From positions 30,985 to 94,984 of the IMG/VR virus record IMGVR_UViG_3300037010_001275: DNA of 64,000 bases, one strand, 5' to 3'. Positions 7,065 through 55,062 of the stretch are shown one piece after another (position 1 is the first letter of the stretch; every line of letters begins with the position of its first letter). Source of the stretch: a virus. Made by a program: the position numbers and the translations under genes. The notes beneath the pieces are model-generated. The model saw only the letters and a list, made by a program, of their open reading frames with translations, did no database searches and was not told the DNA's origin.

Positions 7065-7235
7065 TTTCCCTTTTCCTCATATATAATACATACGAACACC
7101 GAGTCAATCATGGAAATTATATATACGTCTTGGTATTTTAGAAGAGTTGAAAGGAGAAGTCCACTGAACACATTACTAATTTAGGGTCCGATCCGGCCCT
7201 ACAAATTTCGAGCGAATATGAAAGGAAGAGCATAA

Positions 7236-8588
7236 ATGCTAAATGTAAAACCGAGAGACATCCAGAGCGAGTTCAATGAGCTGGCGCTTGTGACCAACTA
7301 CGAGGCACTCGACAACGATTTCCGCTTCACGGCGGACGGCGTCTTCTCCGAGCGGATCTTCGGGTTCATGACGAACGGCGTCGATCATTCCTGTGAGTGT
7401 GGAAAGTTTCAGGGTTCGTTCAACCTTGGACACACCTGTGATGCGTGCGGTACGAAGGTGACGTTCAGGGGGTTACAGTTAGCGCGGGAAGGCTGGGTCG
7501 ACTTGCGCTATCCAGCCCTACACCCAGTCTTCTTCCGCTATTTACGGAAGATCATCGGAGCGACGGCGCTGAATGACATCCTAAACTACAAGATGAAGAT
7601 CAATGTCAATGGAACTCCGGTGGAAGTCCCAATGGAGGCACCTTTCAAGGGGATCGGGATGTTCCGTTTCATTGAAAACCTCGACGACATCGCCCAACAT
7701 TTCCTCGACAAAAAGAAGGACCCAGCCAAGTGGCGTGACTGGCAGTTCTTTAAGGAAAACGAGGAGATAGCATACATCGACAAGTTCCCAATTATCAATA
7801 GCCGCCTTCGCCCCGGCAACGTCATTAACGGCGAGTTTCAGTTCGACGAGATCAACAACCTGTACAATGCGATCATCAGGAACTCGGAGACACTCGGCAG
7901 CTTCACGGATATCGAGGCGACCGAGTCGAACATTCTGACGTTGGTCTATAAAAACCAAATGCTCATCAACGAGATCTTCGACACGATCCTCGAAACCCTC
8001 TCGAACAAAGAAGGTTTCATTCGGAACAGTCTGATCGGTTCCCGACTGAACCTCTCAGCCAGGAATGTGATTACGCCACTGTCTGGCGAGTACAAGATGA
8101 ACGACTGCGTCGTGCCCTATAAGACAGCGATGGAGCTCATGAAGCCACTAATCCTTCGCAAGTTGCAAAAGATCAAACGCGTCCCGATCCAGCAGGCGCA
8201 GAAGATTTGGTTCGAGGCTACCCTTACGTACAATAAGCTCGTCCATGCAGTGATGCGTGATATCGCCAAGAACGAGAACGTCAAGATTCTTCTGAACCGT
8301 AACCCGACCATCAACGTCGGATCGATCCTGTTGCTCAACATCGCTGACGTAAAAGGCGACATGAGCGATGTCACACTGAGTATCAGTAATCTTGTGTTGC
8401 CGTTGCTTGGTGCCGACTACGATGGTGACGTGCTCAACATCGTTCTTGTTGTCTCGAAGCGGTTCGTCGAGATGTTTGCGCCCTTCCAGCCGTCGAATTT
8501 CGTAATCAACTGTGACAGTGGCGACTTCAATGGCAGCTTTAAGCCCTTCAAGGATATCGAGGTCGGGCTGCAGTCACTCTTGAACTAA
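7236..8588 (+). CDS. Phage multisubunit RNA polymerase beta'-like N-terminal subunit (catalytic), probably non-virion RNAP
   Basis: DGVFSERIFG, Zn-finger CECG..CDAC, SARNVITP, LLNRNPT and catalytic GADYDGD. Confidence 0.9.
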   Translation: MLNVKPRDIQSEFNELALVTNYEALDNDFRFTADGVFSERIFGFMTNGVDHSCECGKFQGSFNLGHTCDACGTKVTFRGLQLAREGWVDLRYPALHPVFFRYLRKIIGATALNDILNYKMKINVNGTPVEVPMEAPFKGIGMFRFIENLDDIAQHFLDKKKDPAKWRDWQFFKENEEIAYIDKFPIINSRLRPGNVINGEFQFDEINNLYNAIIRNSETLGSFTDIEATESNILTLVYKNQMLINEIFDTILETLSNKEGFIRNSLIGSRLNLSARNVITPLSGEYKMNDCVVPYKTAMELMKPLILRKLQKIKRVPIQQAQKIWFEATLTYNKLVHAVMRDIAKNENVKILLNRNPTINVGSILLLNIADVKGDMSDVTLSISNLVLPLLGADYDGDVLNIVLVVSKRFVEMFAPFQPSNFVINCDSGDFNGSFKPFKDIEVGLQSLLN

Positions 8589-36817: not shown

Positions 36818-37003
36818 ATGATTACCGTTAATGAAATCGTCGCCAGTCTTCTTTCGGAAGATCCCACTGATCCGAAGCGCCGGGAATTGGAAAAGGGCCT
36901 GACCTATAAGGAGGCCATGAAGCAATTCCCTTACAGTCCGAAGATGGGGGATTGCCGTGGTTTTAGCTATGATCCTGACACCGGGATCGCTACCTGGATG
37001 TAA
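36818..37003 (+). CDS. Small protein with ...LLSE leader
   Basis: Strong GGAGG RBS; MITVNEIVASLLSE. Confidence 0.6.
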   Translation: MITVNEIVASLLSEDPTDPKRRELEKGLTYKEAMKQFPYSPKMGDCRGFSYDPDTGIATWM

Positions 37004-37081
37004 CAAAAAAAAAATTAGGAGAATGCTGCGCAGCATTCTCCTAATTTTACATCCCTTGGAGATACGACTCATGGTAGCATC

Positions 37082-37435
37082 TCAAAAATAGTAACTAAAA
37101 ATTTTTGTACATTTTATGCGATCCCACTCCCCTAGGAGAAAGGACTTTTCAAAGCCGTTGCCGTTAATGCAGGCGCTGGTGACGTATAGATCACTATCAG
37201 TGATCCTGCTCTCGTACAATTCCTGGTTGTATTTAGCAATTGCTAGGGAGTCGGGATTACCCACCGGCTTCACGAGAAATGCTGTGAAGGACTCGTTTTC
37301 ACGCATCCTCAGCACGTTGCACAGTACGAGCTTACTCCTGTATTGACCAAAGTCGGCCCTGTTGCCGAACTGGACAAGAGCTAGTCCGCCATCTCTTATA
37401 TGATCAGCGGTTTGAGTTTTGACTTGGTTGGTCAT
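37082..37435 (-). CDS. Hypothetical early protein
   Basis: AAGGAG RBS; early promoter at 37548-37574; terminator at about 37005-37048. Confidence 0.65.
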   Translation of the reverse strand: MTNQVKTQTADHIRDGGLALVQFGNRADFGQYRSKLVLCNVLRMRENESFTAFLVKPVGNPDSLAIAKYNQELYESRITDSDLYVTSACINGNGFEKSFLLGEWDRIKCTKIFSYYF

Positions 37436-39495: not shown

Positions 39496-39840
39496 ATGAA
39501 AAAAATCAGCGATATCGTTAACTCGACAAACTTCGAACACGTAGGGTATTCTTTACTCTTCGCATCTGTCCTCGCCGCAGTGCTATGGCTCATCACTGGA
39601 GATCTAAAGACCTCGATTGCCGTAGGTTGTGGTTTCGGCGCAGGATTCTTCGTTGGACGTGAGCACGATCAAGCGGAGGACCGCTGGGTCAAGAAGTTTG
39701 GAGAGGGGAAGAGCTCCAATATGCCTTGGTGGGGCGGCCTCGATCTCCGTGTCTGGGATGAGATTGACCCCTGGATGGACTGGGTTCTGCCTGCCATCGT
39801 CATGTCCGTTGTGTTCTGGCTCAGCCAAACTTACCTGTAA
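39496..39840 (+). CDS. Small membrane protein
   Basis: Two to three hydrophobic segments; AAGGA RBS. Confidence 0.7.
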   Translation: MKKISDIVNSTNFEHVGYSLLFASVLAAVLWLITGDLKTSIAVGCGFGAGFFVGREHDQAEDRWVKKFGEGKSSNMPWWGGLDLRVWDEIDPWMDWVLPAIVMSVVFWLSQTYL

Positions 39841-39929
39841 AAAGTCTATGTTCCACTCATAGCGAGCATGGATTTTCAGAAAAAAAAAAGATCCATGTCC
39901 CCTTACGGACATGGATCTTTTAGCACGCT

Positions 39930-40520
39930 TCATTCACCACTGGAGATCATCCGCTCGAGAGCAATGATTCGTGGAGCGTGAAGCGTGTTGAAGTTCTCTT
40001 TAAGAAACGCCTCAATCTCCTCTCTGGAGCGATAGATTCCTTCGCGTATTACAAAGTCAGCCATGGCAGTAGGGATCTTTAGCATTGCGGACAACACATG
40101 TGCCGCTCCGATTTTGCGAGCAGCATATTTGTCGGCTTCTAGTTCTTGTGCCATATCAAGATGAACCTTTGGTTTATCCAAAGTATCCATGTCTTTTTCG
40201 TTGAGGGCGAAAGCTGCATCGACGTGCCCTAGGACAATGTGACCCTCTTCGTGGGCTATAACCGAAGCAATCTCTTCTTCAGAGAAGATATCTCTGGAAA
40301 AGATGTCGGTGTAAATACCGATCACATACCCATTAGGGATGGAATCGAGATTTACACTGGAGCAGATTCGGGCGCTGGCTGCCCGAATCTTATCGTTCAT
40401 GATGGAGACATATGCGCCCCCACTCTGAAGAGAGATGTGCACGGCATCGCTTCTTTCAATTTTGTATTTGTCGACCAACATGTCGACCGATATAAAATTG
40501 ATAGTAATCATGGGAATCAT
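39930..40520 (-). CDS. Zn metallopeptidase (M48-like)
   Basis: VIAHEEGHIVLGH and ELEADKYA; early promoter at 40565-40591. Confidence 0.75.
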   Translation of the reverse strand: MIPMITINFISVDMLVDKYKIERSDAVHISLQSGGAYVSIMNDKIRAASARICSSVNLDSIPNGYVIGIYTDIFSRDIFSEEEIASVIAHEEGHIVLGHVDAAFALNEKDMDTLDKPKVHLDMAQELEADKYAARKIGAAHVLSAMLKIPTAMADFVIREGIYRSREEIEAFLKENFNTLHAPRIIALERMISSGE

Positions 40521-45853: not shown

Positions 45854-46060
45854 TCAGTCGTTGCTGAAAGATTTTTTTCGCTTTAGACGAATCTGACTCG
45901 CACGGGATAGATTCGATGCGGTCTTTAACATATTACCTCTTCGACGCACTACGGTGCCGGAGCACGGCATGACACCATGTTTTCCTGATGGTTGTTGGTT
46001 TATTGCTATTTTCAGTGGGTCATTACCCACTGAGAGCTGACCTGCCAAATACGCTAACAT
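45854..46060 (-). CDS. Small basic hypothetical protein
   Basis: AGAGGT RBS; degenerate early promoter GTAATT-N15-AGATAT at 46103-46129. Confidence 0.45.
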   Translation of the reverse strand: MLAYLAGQLSVGNDPLKIAINQQPSGKHGVMPCSGTVVRRRGNMLKTASNLSRASQIRLKRKKSFSND

Positions 46061-46164
46061 GTCGTTGCACCTCTTTCTTTAGTGATTGTAGGCAAGATAA
46101 TAATATCTGAACAACTGAGGTGCAATTACGTTTCCTCATGGCAACGTTGCCATGAGGAGATCCG

Positions 46165-48623: not shown

Positions 48624-48955
48624 CGTTGTTTCCCATTGGGTAGGTGACTAATTGACTGTTGCCGTGGATGAAATCCTTTGCCCAGATCTCGTCATTGACT
48701 GCATATACAGAACTAGCAAATGCTAGTTCCGTCTTTTTTGCTTTACTAATACCGCAGTTTTCTAGCCTTTCATCCTCTTCCTATAATATAGCATACAGTA
48801 GTTTATCAACTAGTAACGTTCCTGATGCTTATACCAGATTTCACGAATCTCATTTGGATTTTCTTTGTGGTTTATAACTACATAGCAGTCATTATGTGAG
48901 CATTCGAACAAAATAAATAAAAACCCCTTGGTCAAAGCCAAGGGGTGTCATTTTT

Positions 48956-49390: not shown

Positions 49391-49464
49391 TGACTCCGCC
49401 TCTTGGTCGAACCAAGCTTCAAGGATTAATAATCCTTTGCCCACACCATGTTTGCTTAGGCAGA
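49391..49464 (-). pseudogene. Decayed tRNA-Asn (anticodon ATT)
   Basis: Acceptor TCTGCCT/AGGCGGA, G discriminator, TCA end, AAGGA-TTATTAA-TCCTT, T-loop shortened to 5 nt. Confidence 0.6.
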
Positions 49465-49505
49465 ATTGCGGCAAAATTGTCTACATCTAAAAAGAAAAAT
49501 GAGTA

Positions 49506-49662
49506 TGGGAGGGGGCCTTTGACAGCCCCATCCCACTAGTAAGGGAGGACATTGGGTCCCCGATGTAATATGTGAGAGGAACTAAAGCTCCTTCCCACTA
49601 AGAGGATATTGGGTCCTCGATATAATTGGGAGGAGCTCTAATAGCCCCTCCCGATAGTAAGG
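49506..49662. repeat. Alternating hairpin repeat array A-B-A-B-A
   Basis: Three TG(G/T)GA..TCCC hairpins alternate with two GAGGAyATTGGGTCCyCGATrTAAT units. Confidence 0.75.
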
Positions 49663-49676
49663 AACGCTCAGACATC

Positions 49677-49724
49677 CCTGGCGTCCCAGCAGGGTACAGT
49701 CCTGGCGTCCCAGCAGGGTACAGT
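49677..49724. repeat. Exact 24-bp tandem repeat, two copies
   Basis: CCTGGCGTCCCAGCAGGGTACAGT occurs twice. Confidence 0.95.
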
Positions 49725-50024
49725 ACAAGTGTTGGGTGACACACCTTGTATCCGGTAGTGATATCCAAAAAACGAACGTCTAGCTAGTCCAACCTCTACC
49801 TGCCCTGTCGGAAACATGCTAAGGGACGAATGTGGCATGCCCTAAACAAGTTCCACATTATTCTGTTAGGTGGATCGTCTACATTCTATTTGTTAGTAAG
49901 AATTGATAATCAATTAGCCAGCTTCAAGAGATACTGAAAATCTTCTTGAAAGTCATGATAAGTGCAGAATGCTTTCAGTTGTAGAAGAACGGTGTAATTG
50001 TCACATTTCTTCTTTTATCGTGAG

Positions 50025-50231
50025 TCATGGCGCTGGAATCCCAAATAGAATCCCACTGCCATGACTCACAAAAACTTCCGTCCTACGGCGATCACGGCTT
50101 AGTTTGCGCTCGGAGCGGATGTGGACCTGATGCCCCTTGCAGACAAGCATCTGGTTCAACTTGGAGGCGCGAGGCTTGGCGGCGATCTTCACAATCAGGG
50201 TTTGCTTTTTCTTTTTCATAATGAGCTCCAT
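50025..50231 (-). CDS. Small very basic hypothetical protein
   Basis: K/R-rich ORF; GGAG precedes the MKKKK start. Confidence 0.5.
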   Translation of the reverse strand: MELIMKKKKQTLIVKIAAKPRASKLNQMLVCKGHQVHIRSERKLSRDRRRTEVFVSHGSGILFGIPAP

Positions 50232-50329
50232 GGTTACTTAGCGATGATAAAAAAAAAATATTTCTGATGCTAATAAAGAAGAAGAGGGGACCGACTTATA
50301 TCGGTCCCTTCGTTCAACACGCTATTTCG

Positions 50330-51010
50330 TTAAGAACATTTCGAATCACCACAGCTGAGACAGGTCATACAGTTGTCCATCGGGATCATTGCCTTAGTCT
50401 GGCAGGACGGGCAGACGACGGCGTTCTTCGGGTAGCCGGTGTGGTTGTCGTTCGTGTCGCCGGTCTTGGCGATGTACTCTTCCCTCTTATTCTTTAGATA
50501 CTCGACAACGAACTCGTCATGCTGCACGGTCTCAATGATGCCAAGGCTCTTAAAGTGCTCGCGAATCGCGAATAGACTGATTTCAGCAACCAATGACGGG
50601 ACGTGACGACCGCCTTTGGCGATGTAGCCGCTGCCGCCGGGGGTCATGATGCACTCGAGCTCCTCGAGGATGAACTTAAGGTCACCGCCGCGACGGAAAC
50701 AGGCTGAGATCATCCGGGTCAGCGCGGTAATCCACTCGTAGTGTGTGGAGTCTTTGCTGTAGACGAAGATTTCAAAGGGCTGGCGGGAGCCGTCATCATT
50801 GATGATGTCATTGATTGTCACGTACATCGCTGCCTTTGCCAGCGGGCTCTTCAGCTTATATGTGACACCGGCAAGGCGCTCAGGGCGCTTGATCTCGCCG
50901 ACGGTTGGCTTGACGACTTCGACCTTCGCCTCAATCTGCTCCGCCTTCTTATCGATGACCTTGTAACCGACGATCTTGCCGGTGATTTGCACGGTTTGAT
51001 TTTCGTTCAT
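50330..51010 (-). CDS. nrdJb: Class II ribonucleotide reductase small subunit NrdJb (TSCPD domain plus Zn ribbon)
   Basis: RPERLAGVTYKLKSP, YVTIND, PFEIF and C-terminal CPSC...CMTCLSCGDSKCS. Confidence 0.85.
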   Translation of the reverse strand: MNENQTVQITGKIVGYKVIDKKAEQIEAKVEVVKPTVGEIKRPERLAGVTYKLKSPLAKAAMYVTINDIINDDGSRQPFEIFVYSKDSTHYEWITALTRMISACFRRGGDLKFILEELECIMTPGGSGYIAKGGRHVPSLVAEISLFAIREHFKSLGIIETVQHDEFVVEYLKNKREEYIAKTGDTNDNHTGYPKNAVVCPSCQTKAMIPMDNCMTCLSCGDSKCS

Positions 51011-51020
51011 GAATTCCTCG

Positions 51021-51377
51021 TTAAAGAATGTTGTTGACGAAGCGGCAAAACAGATCCTCGACATCGAGGATCTCTCCCATGTATTCCACCTTGCGCTTCG
51101 GGTATAGAATGTACTGGTCGTAGCGAGACCGAACAATGATCTTGTACGGGATCTCTCTATCCTCGTTGTGGTTCAACGAGTCATGCTCGCTGATGCGGAC
51201 AAGCTCGACGGCCTCCAGCTCGTTGTTGATTTTCTTTGGAGCATCGATGTCGAGCCGATGATAGTACCCACTACCACGCTGAGCATGTTTCTTAGTTGCT
51301 TCTTGGTCAGTTGATTCCAAACTTTTCTCCTGAGATGAAGGGAGGCGGGTGAACCCGCCTCTCTGACACTTGAGCAT
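51021..51377 (-). CDS. Hypothetical protein between nrdJa and nrdJb (true start probably TTG near 51320)
   Basis: ORF with AGGAG RBS downstream of a hairpin. Confidence 0.5.
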   Translation of the reverse strand: MLKCQRGGFTRLPSSQEKSLESTDQEATKKHAQRGSGYYHRLDIDAPKKINNELEAVELVRISEHDSLNHNEDREIPYKIIVRSRYDQYILYPKRKVEYMGEILDVEDLFCRFVNNIL

Positions 51378-52591
51378 CAGAACTTGCCGTAATATCCTTC
51401 CTTGAGGGCCTCAAATAAATTCGCGGCAGTAGCGACGTTGCCGTCGTACTCCACATTGTCGCTGCCCCGTAGACGGAAGGTCTGGCCGTCCTCAGTCGTG
51501 AATTCGTACTCGGTGGCGTCAAGATCTTCCTTCTTGACCAAAACGCCCTGGAACGCTTCAGGGTTAAATCTGAACGTTGTGCAGCCCTTTAGGCCGCTGT
51601 CGTATGCTGCCATGTAGATGTCTTGAAATTGCTCGAACGAGTAGTCTGTCGGGACATTGATCGTCTTACTGATAGAGGAATCGATCCACTTTTGAGCGGC
51701 GGCCTGTACCTTGACATGATCGAATGGATCAATATCGTCGGCGGCACCCCACTCTGGGCGCTCACGCAGTTCTGCGAGCAGCTTGTCGTCATCGATTGGA
51801 TCTATGATGATCTTCCCGTCAGTAAGGGCACCGGAGGCGTACAGCTCGCGGTACAACATGTACTCGTAGGAGTACACGGACTTCTGGACCTTCGTCTTTT
51901 CACCCGTAACGATGACATTGCGCAGGTAGAAGTGCGAGAAAGACGGCTCGATACCGTTGGAGGCGTTGTTACCGAACGACAAAGCAAGTGTGCCAGTCGG
52001 GGCGATCGATGTGGCATGCGAGAAACGGGAACCATGAACGGAGATTTCACGCAGCAGATCAGCCAGCTCCTCATCATTCCACCAGTCTTTGAAATAGCTA
52101 GACATCACGAAGAGCTTGGAACCCTTTATGGTTTCTCCAAGTTGCACTTTGCCATGCTCGACAGCGAGACGCAGCGACTCGTTCCTAGCGGTCAGTTCCT
52201 CGGTCACGACAAAGTCCTCGGAGAATACTGGGGCAGCGCCACGCTTCTTGGCTAAATCAAGGCCGGTGCGGAAATTGTTGATGGCAAGAGCGCGGGTGAT
52301 CTTATCCGTCAGGTTAACGGAAGCGTCGGAGCCGTAGCGGACGCCGAGCATGATCATCGCGGAGCCAAGGCCGAGGTAGCCCATACCGTGACGGCGCTTG
52401 CGATGAATCTCATCACGCTGTTCCTCGAGCGGCAGGCCATTGATTTCAACGACGTTATCCAGCATCCGAGCGAACAATTGAACATTCTTCTCGAACGCCT
52501 CAAAGTCGAAGTAAGCGTCAGGCGTGAACGGATTGCGAACGTAATATGTCAGGTTCACGGATCCGAGCAGACAGGATCCATTAGGCGGTAA
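51377..52591 (-). CDS. nrdJa: Class II (B12-dependent) RNR NrdJa, exon 2
   Basis: LPPNGSCLLGS, HGMGYLGLG, SIAPTGT, GIEP, DSSISKTINVP, GLKGCTTFR; ends LKEGYYGKF. Confidence 0.92.
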   Translation of the reverse strand, partial: LPPNGSCLLGSVNLTYYVRNPFTPDAYFDFEAFEKNVQLFARMLDNVVEINGLPLEEQRDEIHRKRRHGMGYLGLGSAMIMLGVRYGSDASVNLTDKITRALAINNFRTGLDLAKKRGAAPVFSEDFVVTEELTARNESLRLAVEHGKVQLGETIKGSKLFVMSSYFKDWWNDEELADLLREISVHGSRFSHATSIAPTGTLALSFGNNASNGIEPSFSHFYLRNVIVTGEKTKVQKSVYSYEYMLYRELYASGALTDGKIIIDPIDDDKLLAELRERPEWGAADDIDPFDHVKVQAAAQKWIDSSISKTINVPTDYSFEQFQDIYMAAYDSGLKGCTTFRFNPEAFQGVLVKKEDLDATEYEFTTEDGQTFRLRGSDNVEYDGNVATAANLFEALKEGYYGKF

Positions 52592-54153
52592 CACTAAATC
52601 CAGACAGTTTCCCGTCCAGGTGGATTATATCTTAGCGGGGTCGCCGCTGCTTCCGTTTGCTAGTACTTCATTGCGTTTGATGGGTATACCGAGCGGGCAA
52701 GGGGAAGAACACTCCTTGCCACACAGATTAAAGGTTGCCAAAGCGGCACTCCAGTAAACCTGTAGACAGCACTTGTAATGCATTGACTTTGGAATTAGGT
52801 CCTTGAAGGGAACTACGAATTTGGAGAGGAAAAGCGTCACCTGTTCCATGCTCTGTAATGCCAAGCGGTAACTCACATTCCCCAGAAACTTATCGTACCC
52901 AAAGCCGTGAGACATTATTTTCTTTATGATGAAGGAGATTCCCCACCTTTCTCGAAACAGTTCTACCAACAGTTCGTTCTCATCTAAAGTAAAATTATCT
53001 GTGCAAAGTTCGATTGTGTTATTACGAAATCTATCTTTTTTATTTATAGGTAACGTCCCGTCGTCGAGAAACCAAAGGAAGACAGACTCCTCCGACATCT
53101 TATCAAACCATTCTTTTTTCACAATCTTTCTGCCATTTGAGTCGAGCATCAGTTCCTTCAACCGGTCAAAATACTTAGAAGAGAGAAACGATGACGAATA
53201 GACATTAGTGAAGAATGTCTTCCCTGATGTATGATTGATCCTTCTCGGCTTTATAGCTTCCGGGCCGGGGCTTTGTGGAAAGATAGCATTCAAAAGACGC
53301 ACCTTCAATGTCAGATAGTCTAGATTGTCGTTTTTATGTTCGAGCTTTATGCGTGGCGATCGACCATCGATATGACCGTTACCGAGTACCATCCCAATCA
53401 GGATTGCAATGTTTGCGTCTCGGTCGTTAGTCTTTTCAACACCGCAGTGCTTTGCCATTACTACCACTCTCATTTCGTGATACGTTCTGACCCCATACTT
53501 AGCGTAAATCAGCTCTCGACGACTTTGACCAATGCGAAACGCCCGGTAGAACGATTCTTGTGTTGGGTGGTTGATCACCGCCGATTCTATCTTTTCCATC
53601 GAAAGAAAAGTTTCATCTAAATAGTCATGAAATCTCATGCCATATAAACGTTTGAAGAGATTACTGAACGAGGCAGAGTCAATACTCTTAAATTCTAAAC
53701 AAAATTCTCGACATAACGACGCTTCAAGATCCTGAATATTTGTGGTAGACGCTAAACGTTCATCTATGAATTTCCGGTACAAAGAGTCTTTTAGATCGTT
53801 CAGACCAAACCCAAATAGGCTTTTAAGCTCTCTTTTCCTTAGATGTTCGAAATCCATCTGCAGCTTTTCAGCTATTTCCTTCAGACCGTCTCCTTCTTTA
53901 ATGAAAGAGATGATTTTTTCTTTGGTATCCATCATTATCCTCTCGCACACGCGATACTGAAAAAGTACTATTTAATCTCTGAACGTTCCTCTATTTGAGG
54001 CTTCGCTGCTGATTGCCCAATCCAACCCGTTCTCTAGCATTCGCGCTTAGGCTTATTTCATCCTTACGCTGTAGCCGGGGAGGCTCTAAGGGGTTTCCAG
54101 CAATTAGAAAGCTTTATACAGCCCTTACTTCACCAAACTATGAAGAATTTTTA
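52592..54153 (-). mobile_element. Group I intron (1562 nt) in nrdJa
   Basis: Exon CAGCCT pairs with IGS GGGCTG (U-G); TTGCTGGAAAC..CAATCAGCAG; P7 GATTA/TAATC; terminal G; splicing restores NPCGEQP|LPP. Confidence 0.92.
52625..53935 (-). CDS. Intron-encoded double-motif LAGLIDADG homing endonuclease
   Basis: LIGMVLGNGHI and LWFLDDGT motifs, LCTDNFT; AT-rich. Confidence 0.82.
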   Translation of the reverse strand: MMDTKEKIISFIKEGDGLKEIAEKLQMDFEHLRKRELKSLFGFGLNDLKDSLYRKFIDERLASTTNIQDLEASLCREFCLEFKSIDSASFSNLFKRLYGMRFHDYLDETFLSMEKIESAVINHPTQESFYRAFRIGQSRRELIYAKYGVRTYHEMRVVVMAKHCGVEKTNDRDANIAILIGMVLGNGHIDGRSPRIKLEHKNDNLDYLTLKVRLLNAIFPQSPGPEAIKPRRINHTSGKTFFTNVYSSSFLSSKYFDRLKELMLDSNGRKIVKKEWFDKMSEESVFLWFLDDGTLPINKKDRFRNNTIELCTDNFTLDENELLVELFRERWGISFIIKKIMSHGFGYDKFLGNVSYRLALQSMEQVTLFLSKFVVPFKDLIPKSMHYKCCLQVYWSAALATFNLCGKECSSPCPLGIPIKRNEVLANGSSGDPAKI

Positions 54154-55062
54154 AGGCTGTTCACCGCAGGGGTTCGTCGCACGGATGTTCTCGCAGAACC
54201 AGAGATTGTTCATGTGGTTGATTGCGTCAATCAGCAGAAAACCCGGCTCGGCAAAGTCGTAGGTTGACTTCATGATAATGGACCACAGCTCGCGAGCTGG
54301 CATCTTCTTGTCTTCGAACGGCAAGCCGTTCCACATGAAATGCCACATCTCGTCGTTCTTGACCGCCTCCATGAAGGCATTCGTGATCAAAATCGAGATG
54401 TTAAATTGACGCAGGCGGCCATCCTCACGCTTCGCCTTGATGACGTCCACGACGTCCGGGTGAGAGATATCAAAGGTAAACATCTGCGCACCACGACGGC
54501 CTCCAGCAGAGGACACTGTAAAACAAGCCTTATCGAAGACATCGGCAAAGGCCAACGGACCGTTCGTGTACGCACCAACACCGTTGACGTGAGCACCCTT
54601 CGGACGGATCGACGAGAACTCGTATCCAATACCACAGCCGTACTTCAGCGTGATCGCAGCCTTATACAACGACCCAAAGATGCCCTCCATTGAGTCTTGG
54701 ATTGTCTCGGACACAGTGCAGTTGATGGTTGACGTCTTCGGTTTGTGAGCACTGGCCCCGGCGTTCGACATGATTCGACCGGCGGGCCAGCATCCGCCGT
54801 CATGCATGGCATTATAGTACTCGGAAGCGATACGGTCGATCGTTGCATCTTGCTCATGCGCCGCATACTCGCCGCTCTTCACGCCAGTCTCGAACTCGGC
54901 CTCAGCGAGGGCTCGAGAGACGCGCTTGTAAGTGTCCGACACAGAGCCATCGATTGGCTCCTTCGTTTTGCTGTGTTTCAGGCAGTATTTGCTCTCCCAG
55001 ATTTCTTGGGAGGTCTCCTGTAGGGGCAGGATTACGACTTTCTGTTCAGTTTGTTGGATCAT
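54154..55062 (-). CDS. nrdJa: Class II RNR NrdJa, exon 1
   Basis: PAGRIMSNAG, INCTV, GIGYEFSSIRP, GGRRGAQM and catalytic ATNPCGEQP. Confidence 0.92.

Follow-up and report, generated by a model that had tools for sequence, protein, structure and literature searches.

What occupies the ~800 nt without a credible gene that separate a small open reading frame (ORF) of 68 amino acids (aa) from three tRNA genes on the minus strand of the IMG/VR virus record IMGVR_UViG_3300037010_001275? This record of 94,984 bp has a completeness of ~37% (CheckV) and is thus a fragment of a jumbo phage; the window analyzed here is its bases 30985-94984, a stretch of 64,000 nt, and all positions are numbered within that window unless another sequence is named. 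A preliminary description of this DNA had placed in the gap an array of two alternating hairpin types, A-B-A-B-A, downstream of a late-type promoter, and had interpreted it as a multivalent protein-binding RNA or as a tRNA-associated noncoding RNA processed into units. We find that the repeat and the fold of the array are real and not due to chance, and we tentatively read it as part of a structured leader at the head of a late tRNA transcript.

The array was located where the preliminary description had put it, with all hairpins within 1-3 nt of the earlier coordinates. Read along the minus strand, its order is CCUUACUA, A1, AAUUAUAUC, B1, UUA, A2, AUAUUACAUC, B2, CCUUACUA, A3, ACUCA, UUUUUCUUUUU. 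The linker CCUUACUA precedes A1 (49655-49662) and recurs before A3 (49537-49544); the plus-strand linkers noted earlier, TAGTAAGG and CTAA, are the counterparts of CCUUACUA and of the UUA that precedes A2. A1 (49628-49652) is a hairpin of 10 bp, one of them G-U, with the loop AUUAG (-18.3 kcal/mol), and A2 (49572-49598) has 11 bp plus a bulged A, two G-U pairs, and the loop UUUA (-12.8 kcal/mol). A3 (49505-49536) is the strongest of the five hairpins, with 12 bp, a 1x1 mismatch, and the loop GUCAAA (-21.7 kcal/mol). The B hairpins are shorter: B1 (49602-49618; GAGGA / CCCAAUA / UCCUC) has 5 bp (-5.7 kcal/mol) and B2 (49545-49561; GGGGAC / CCAAU / GUCCUC) has 6 bp (-7.7 kcal/mol), and they lie within a conserved B unit at 49626-49602 and 49569-49545, respectively. 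The ACUCA spacer and UUUUUCUUUUU (49487-49504) form, together with A3, a noncanonical terminator-like end. On the 5' side of the array lies a perfect tandem duplication that the preliminary description had not noted, 24 nt x 2.0 (49677-49724; Tandem Repeats Finder, 100% match, score 96), each copy of which can form a small CUGG-GACG-CCAG hairpin. The remaining 5' part of the predicted transcript (49725-49855) has a stem-loop right at +1 in the predicted fold.

The array comprises 2.5 tandem copies of a two-hairpin unit of 57-61 nt. The first two units, U1 and U2, are identical at 44 of 57 bases (77% alike; z = 8.1 relative to shuffles), and the A part of the third, U3, aligns with U1 at z = 4.2 on the same basis. 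The preliminary description was right that this is not a CRISPR array: the duplication involves A and B together, the elements that would have to be the spacers, B1 and B2, match at 22 of 25 positions (88%), and those that would have to be the repeats, A1-A3, diverge from one another in sequence, length, and loop. Folded with RNAfold, the minus strand of 49740-49490 reached -99.7 kcal/mol (z = -4.57) and the plus strand -96.3 kcal/mol (z = -3.17). Among 7586 windows of 170 nt, taken from both strands of the whole record and ranked by GC-corrected folding, the array windows came approximately 10th-25th, and two adjoining noncoding windows were also within the top 25. No further copy of any array unit was found in the 95-kb record. 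Taken together, the 24-nt duplication and the diverged units of the array indicate at least two episodes of growth by slippage, an old one and a very recent one. Other top-ranked folding windows lie at the start of the record (-30983 to -30760 in window numbering) and at 45992-46160 (plus), 40242-40436, 36892-37136, and 39817-40036; some of these overlap long terminator hairpins (39921-39886 and 37048-37011).

The late-type promoter that had been noted at 49856-49867 (minus) is also credible. In phage AR9, late promoters have the form AACA-N6-T(A/G), with the last base serving as the transcription start, and the single tRNA gene of that phage is late (PMC5312081). The sequence AACAGAATAATG is an exact fit to this motif of the AR9-type non-virion RNA polymerase (RNAP), and the predicted transcription start is the G at 49856. 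Sense copies of the motif are strongly enriched in front of genes in this phage: for 90 crudely called genes, the 100 nt upstream contained it 22 times on the sense and 5 times on the antisense strand, compared with 6.1 +/- 2.4 occurrences in shuffled upstream windows, where 0 of 1000 shuffles reached 22. Its density was 0.88 per kb per strand in noncoding and 0.37 in coding sequence, and most of the noncoding sites stand 19-60 nt 5' of a start codon. The site at 49867 is the sole late motif in the ~800-nt gap ahead of the tRNAs, at a distance of 1233 nt from the next protein gene, and a scan of the region for sigma-70 promoters returned nothing relevant. Judging from this placement, the motif at 49867-49856 most plausibly drives a noncoding RNA together with the tRNAs.

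The earlier statement that no ORF lies in this stretch holds in part. Mechanical ORFs of 48-56 aa do exist there, but they have neither a homologue nor a ribosome-binding site. The 56-aa ORF at 49838-49668 (minus) was considered as a leader peptide and rejected, given that it has no homologue and that an AGGG only 1 nt 5' of its ATG does not make a ribosome-binding site. Codons read by the three tRNAs are not enriched in this ORF, which is probably not a gene. Mini-ORFs on the plus strand of the B units (a Shine-Dalgarno sequence followed by UUG GGU CCN CGA) are too short and are antisense to all neighbors, and we considered them to be due to chance.

The flanking genes and the tRNA genes around the array all lie on the minus strand. 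Downstream of it are tRNA-Ser(GGA), tRNA-Glu(UUC), and tRNA-Ile(UAU) (49217-48958), and a terminator scan placed a canonical terminator behind tRNA-Ile at 48946-48923. We propose, with a probability of roughly 0.4, that the array belongs to a late, minus-strand, ORF-less RNA that heads this tRNA operon, and that, in cis, it is a stable leader or a partial terminator, which tRNA-processing enzymes remove. Under this proposal, the phage's own non-virion RNAP would make the RNA late in infection from the promoter at 49867-49856. The transcript would begin at ~49856 with the 5' stem-loop, continue through the freshly duplicated 24-nt element, and then enter the five consecutive hairpins, whose 2.5 diverged unit copies would have grown by replication slippage. 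At the strong A3 hairpin and the U-rich tract, part of transcription would probably stop or pause, yielding an RNA of ~370 nt, and the remainder would continue past a decayed tRNA-like element to include the three tRNAs, from which host RNase P and RNase E would separate the leader. In cis, the array might then serve as a nuclease-resistant leader or as a partial terminator that sets the amount of tRNA precursor. We infer the transcription, 3' end, processing, and any function of the array RNA. What speaks for the cis-leader reading is the nonrandom character of the hairpins and the repeat, the exact and enriched promoter motif, the placement of all flanking genes and the tRNAs on one strand, the G-U pairs on the minus strand, a similar layout in a related phage (both described below), and the tRNA-like element.

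This tRNA-like element lies between the array and the tRNA genes, at 49392-49465 (minus), and was called by ARAGORN as 'Asn(AUU)' below the usual threshold, at -ps95 and below only. It has acceptor, anticodon, and T arms, but its T-loop is of 5 nt, and the Rfam tRNA model gave no match to it at E <= 10. Probably the remnant of a decayed tRNA, it could direct RNase P to cut and so release the leader. At -ps80, ARAGORN made a second, weaker call, 'Phe(AAA)', at ~49397-49310. The hairpins themselves are not tRNA-like by these means: on 49505-49662, ARAGORN called no tRNA even at -ps80, and RF00005 of Rfam did not match.

Which strand is the RNA strand, and does the pairing carry an evolutionary signal? 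The A stems contain G-U wobble pairs on the minus strand, as had been described, and these would be A-C mismatches on the plus strand; this bias lends modest support to a minus-strand RNA. Given both the wobble pairs and the better folding, the minus strand is supported as the better RNA strand. Pairing is indeed kept despite the differences between copies, but the compensatory reading of those differences fails an arm-swap control, in which noncognate arms paired about as well as cognate ones. A1 gave -19.4 kcal/mol with its own arm and -19.7 kcal/mol with the arm of A3, A2 gave -14.1 kcal/mol with its own arm and -15.1 kcal/mol with that of A1, and A3 alone favored its own arm. The 5' arms are runs of G/A and the 3' arms are runs of C/U, and as a consequence nearly any substitution still pairs through G-U.

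The preliminary description had also proposed that B can form two alternative stems. A second stem (AUAU/AUAU versus ACAU/AUGU) can be drawn, but it is energetically negligible, at +1.6 kcal/mol in B1 and -3.4 kcal/mol in B2 compared with -5.7 and -7.7 kcal/mol for the main stem. Owing to this weakness, the one 'double change' that it shows (ACAU..AUGU / AUAU..AUAU) carries little weight. A1 and A2 resemble each other as near-palindromes, and A1-B1-A2 therefore has two equally good folds, namely three hairpins (-39.8 kcal/mol) and a single rod of ~26 bp with B1 at its tip (-39.9 kcal/mol). A domino attenuator with shifted pairing registers was rejected on hand inspection, since the shifted helices have only 3-5 bp to set against the -21.7 kcal/mol of A3.

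Relatives of the array were sought in several collections. A blastn search of 50,697 phage records with 801 nt of sequence gave no match, and neither did pattern searches of IMG/VR with the B unit and the A unit or BLAST of the region against four related records (G001-G004). The B-unit pattern, an exact 19-nt pattern that could have missed diverged look-alikes, gave three single matches in JGI metagenome contigs (L007-L009) and, among 185,579 prokaryote species genomes, one that falls within a coding region of Planctomycetia (L010); none was in an array, and all were judged to be chance. One of these chance matches, of the B hairpin to stem III of a hammerhead-like element, brought up a GC-rich, phage-like contig of 2.6 kb (L007; Ga0315284_10196038). 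That contig carries three intergenic elements (2401-2480, 1950-2030, and 640-705; minus) with a type II hammerhead layout (CGAAAC, stem III, GUC, stem I, CUGAUGAG), each just past a stop codon, and the Rfam Hammerhead_II model scored only 16.8 bits on one of them.

The sequence of the locus is identical in three DNA metagenomes from three studies (mats and sediment), and this identity leaves no natural variation for a covariation test; a look for RNA runs with the locus returned none. A variant strain co-occurs in run X1 at a depth about a third that of the main strain. Over 50047-50239, its contigs align to the 68-aa gene at ~10% divergence. They cease to match below 50047, so the region downstream of the 68-aa gene differs between close strains.

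The only comparable locus found in IMG/VR (L002/L012) lies in the record IMGVR_UViG_3300047095_000811 (L002), whose TSCPD protein is 76% identical to that of our phage. There, a homologue of the 68-aa protein is followed by two small ORFs and a terminator; the motif CCTAACA-N6-TA stands immediately behind the terminator, ahead of an ORF-less leader of ~480 nt and of tRNA-Asn, -Ala, -Tyr, and -Ser. The leader folds strongly (z = -4.68); within 7099-7400 of L002 (plus), the first ~280 nt of the RNA are closed by a 27-nt helix (7110-7136 with 7362-7388), followed by the U-rich UUUUGCUCUUU. This leader has no Rfam match, and its local alignment score with the array RNA was 18, compared with 19.5 +/- 2.1 for shuffles, indicating that the two are unrelated. 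In two further relatives (L003 and L004), whose 385-aa protein is 82% identical, the whole tRNA/leader island is absent, and the distant G004 has short tRNA leaders with no analogue of the array. Thus, the layout of a late promoter, a long structured ORF-less leader, and tRNAs is common to two phages, but the content of the slot is not. The preliminary description had looked to structural conservation in homologous loci, and here the evidence leans against its interpretation: the one comparable relative has an unrelated RNA in that place.

Several of these observations weigh against a cis-acting leader and partial terminator. Since none of the other sequences searched contains the array, it has no phylogenetic support, and its internal 'covariation' is explained by the purine- and pyrimidine-rich arms. 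In the identity-maximizing gapless alignment, the stems of A1 and A2 are offset from each other by two columns. A3 does not look like a canonical terminator, as its U-run begins 6 nt past the stem; the terminator scan does not call it because the T-run is more than 2 nt past the stem, and this phage's clear terminators have the T-run directly behind a long stem. From its sequence, A3 would be a partial terminator at best. Finally, repeated units are not obviously needed for the role of a cis leader.

The failure of the covariation control makes a neutral by-product a serious rival, if a doubtful one. By this account, the locus is an intergenic island that changes fast and is prone to slippage, and the array arose as a terminator-like palindrome was duplicated together with its flank; it has no function of its own, is still foldable only through its low-complexity purine/pyrimidine arms, and may be transcribed or not. 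The equal pairing of noncognate arms and the out-of-register stems of A1 and A2 fit this account, as does the adjoining perfect 24-nt duplication, which shows ongoing slippage. The locus is also variable (the island is absent from L003 and L004, another RNA is present in L002, and the co-occurring strain diverges just below 50047), and no homologue was found in the collections searched. Yet the units are 23% diverged and their five modules all fold, in a region whose folding ranks within the top 0.3% of the genome, and the mismatches favor G-U on the strand predicted to be transcribed; both points weigh against a by-product. The identity of the sequence in three metagenomes also counts against this account, though it shows only one widespread strain.

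Scans of 2 kb and of 391 nt against the known RNA families of Rfam 15 (cmscan, E <= 10) returned nothing but the three tRNAs and noise: no Csr/Rsm, ToxI, abiF, GOLLD, ROOL, T-box, 6S, or ribozyme match. Small self-cleaving ribozymes (hammerhead, twister, pistol, and hatchet) were rejected given that none of their core strings (e.g. CUGAUGA...GAAA) is present in the array and that Rfam, whose sensitivity is limited here, gave no match.

A role in trans, in which the A and/or B hairpins titrate a host or phage RNA-binding protein as a multivalent decoy, is unlikely in our estimation. Such a decoy might, for example, be an RNA-antitoxin mimic that counters an abortive-infection toxin of the type III or AbiF-like sort and that slippage has expanded, as it has in phage phiTE. 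Tandem structured units with a terminator-like hairpin resemble type III antitoxin arrays and RCd22, in which two abiF hairpin motifs stand 19 nt apart and are followed by a terminator (PMC12373285). Phage pseudo-ToxI copies can expand by slippage, and repeat expansion of this kind is documented as a phage counter-defense (PMC3475682); the locus bears signs of both recent and old duplication and varies between strains, as counter-defense loci often do. However, the array has no similarity to ToxI, abiF, or another Rfam family, and the exact 19-nt pattern of its most conserved unit drew only single chance matches from 185,579 species genomes and from metagenomes. Membership among the type III antitoxins was rejected: known antitoxin units are 33-50 nt and nearly identical (PMC12373285), whereas those of the array are longer and far less alike. 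Moreover, three tRNA genes rather than a toxin gene follow it, although a phage mimic would not need one. A Pfam search of the neighboring ORFs found no toxin domain (ToxN/AbiQ/CptN/TenpN/Abi_2) and no replication or packaging gene adjoining the array. Beyond the architecture and the pseudo-ToxI precedent (PMC3475682), nothing observed speaks positively for an antitoxin mimic. More specifically, it is conceivable but improbable that the array is a phage counter-defense RNA, a slippage-expandable multivalent hairpin decoy made late by the phage's own polymerase to capture a host RNA-binding immune effector (for instance, a toxin under the control of an RNA antitoxin), and that the L002 RNA is another cargo of a swappable 'noncoding RNA slot' heading jumbo-phage tRNA operons.

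A role at the level of DNA, with the palindromes and direct repeats acting as protein-binding sites (origin iterons, a packaging site, or an operator array) by an AT-rich tract, is very unlikely. Three near-palindromes spaced 57-62 bp apart, a 24-bp direct repeat, and a T-rich tract could be read in this way, and both strands fold better than shuffles. On the other hand, the arm mismatches are strand-biased, with G-U on the minus strand, and the palindromes vary in sequence and arm length, unlike iterons. The locus shows no turn in GC skew and adjoins no replication or packaging gene. An origin of replication was rejected, as no GC-skew signal is present at the locus, and so were direct repeats ATGTAGAC(G/A)AT flanking the cassette, since chance alone would give ~2-3 matches of this kind over 800 nt.

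A CsrB/RsmZ-type sponge for CsrA/RsmA, which had been suggested from a plus strand dense in GGA and Shine-Dalgarno-like strings and which the multi-hairpin layout would suit, is scarcely credible: GGA is indeed frequent in 49480-49730, but on both strands (10 minus, 8 plus), every occurrence is paired in a stem of the minimum-free-energy fold with none in a loop or linker, no Csr/Rsm model matches at E <= 10, and the upstream 68-aa protein has neither a Pfam or PDB sequence match nor a confident fold. The latter protein had seemed CsrA-like by eye (KGHQVHIRS...R.EVF), an idea we rejected on the missing sequence matches and a predicted local distance difference test (pLDDT) score of 49 from AF2.

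The 68-aa ORF (50231-50025, minus) encodes a very basic protein (MKKKKQT...KGHQVH.RS.RK.SRD.RRTEVF) with 57-81% identity to three other metagenomic sequences (81% for P0003); a homologue also stands upstream of the leader/tRNA locus in L002. Atlas matches for this protein were uninformative, and a nucleic-acid-binding role is only a guess. Farther upstream, also on the minus strand, are a separate ORF with a TSCPD domain (50330-51136), the C-terminal barrel part of a ribonucleotide reductase (51377-52594), a LAGLIDADG endonuclease ORF of 441 aa (52625-53950), and the N-terminal part of the ribonucleotide-reductase module (54151-55062). A ribonucleotide reductase gene in pieces across 50330-55062 suggests invasion by an intron or intein. 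In L002, an extra ORF of 488 aa is inserted behind the TSCPD gene. On the other side of the tRNA genes, the hairpin at 48923-48946 has T-runs on both strands, and a terminator was called there in either orientation; a gene-free stretch of ~300 nt separates it from the 385-aa gene (minus) that follows.

At present, the array is a documented candidate rather than a discovery, an orphan without relatives found. If the proposal of a late leader RNA is true, variable ORF-less RNAs would occupy the space from a late promoter to the tRNA genes in AR9/phiR1-37-like phages, and this promoter-to-tRNA slot could be mined for counter-defense or regulatory RNAs.

How does the array compare with known systems? 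REP/BIME elements are composed of two kinds of imperfect palindrome that alternate with short linkers in transcribed intergenic regions. The array shares with them two alternating palindrome types and short linkers. Unlike these elements, which occupy many loci per genome, it is a single locus in 95 kb, and the B pattern found no copies in prokaryote genomes. GOLLD and ROOL are phage-borne noncoding RNAs of ~600-800 nt with conserved complex folds that tend to adjoin tRNA genes; the array, in contrast, consists of ~170 nt of simple hairpins and has no Rfam match. Like CsrB/RsmZ, it would be a multi-hairpin, GGA-rich noncoding RNA, but it is without the GGA-in-loop motif and without an Rfam match. 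With type III antitoxin arrays (ToxI, antiQ, CptI, and TenpI), pseudo-ToxI, and RCd22, it has in common tandem structured units, which in the array end in a terminator-like hairpin rather than a clear terminator. It differs from the type III arrays, which are followed by a toxin gene, in that its units are 57-61 nt and 77% alike, tRNAs follow, and no family matches. The nearest parallel is with RNAC and RNAD of phage T4, small stable RNAs from the tRNA region of a large lytic phage whose role is unknown (PMC3014915). Like these, the array RNA is an ORF-less structured RNA (here predicted) of a large phage's tRNA region; unlike them, it heads the operon, has a tandem two-hairpin repeat and an AR9-type late promoter, and bears no sequence or Rfam relation to either. 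If transcribed and functional, it would add one more case to the poorly understood noncoding RNAs that large phages make alongside their tRNAs. The array is thus an orphan example of the T4-RNAC/RNAD-like kind and not a new kind of system.

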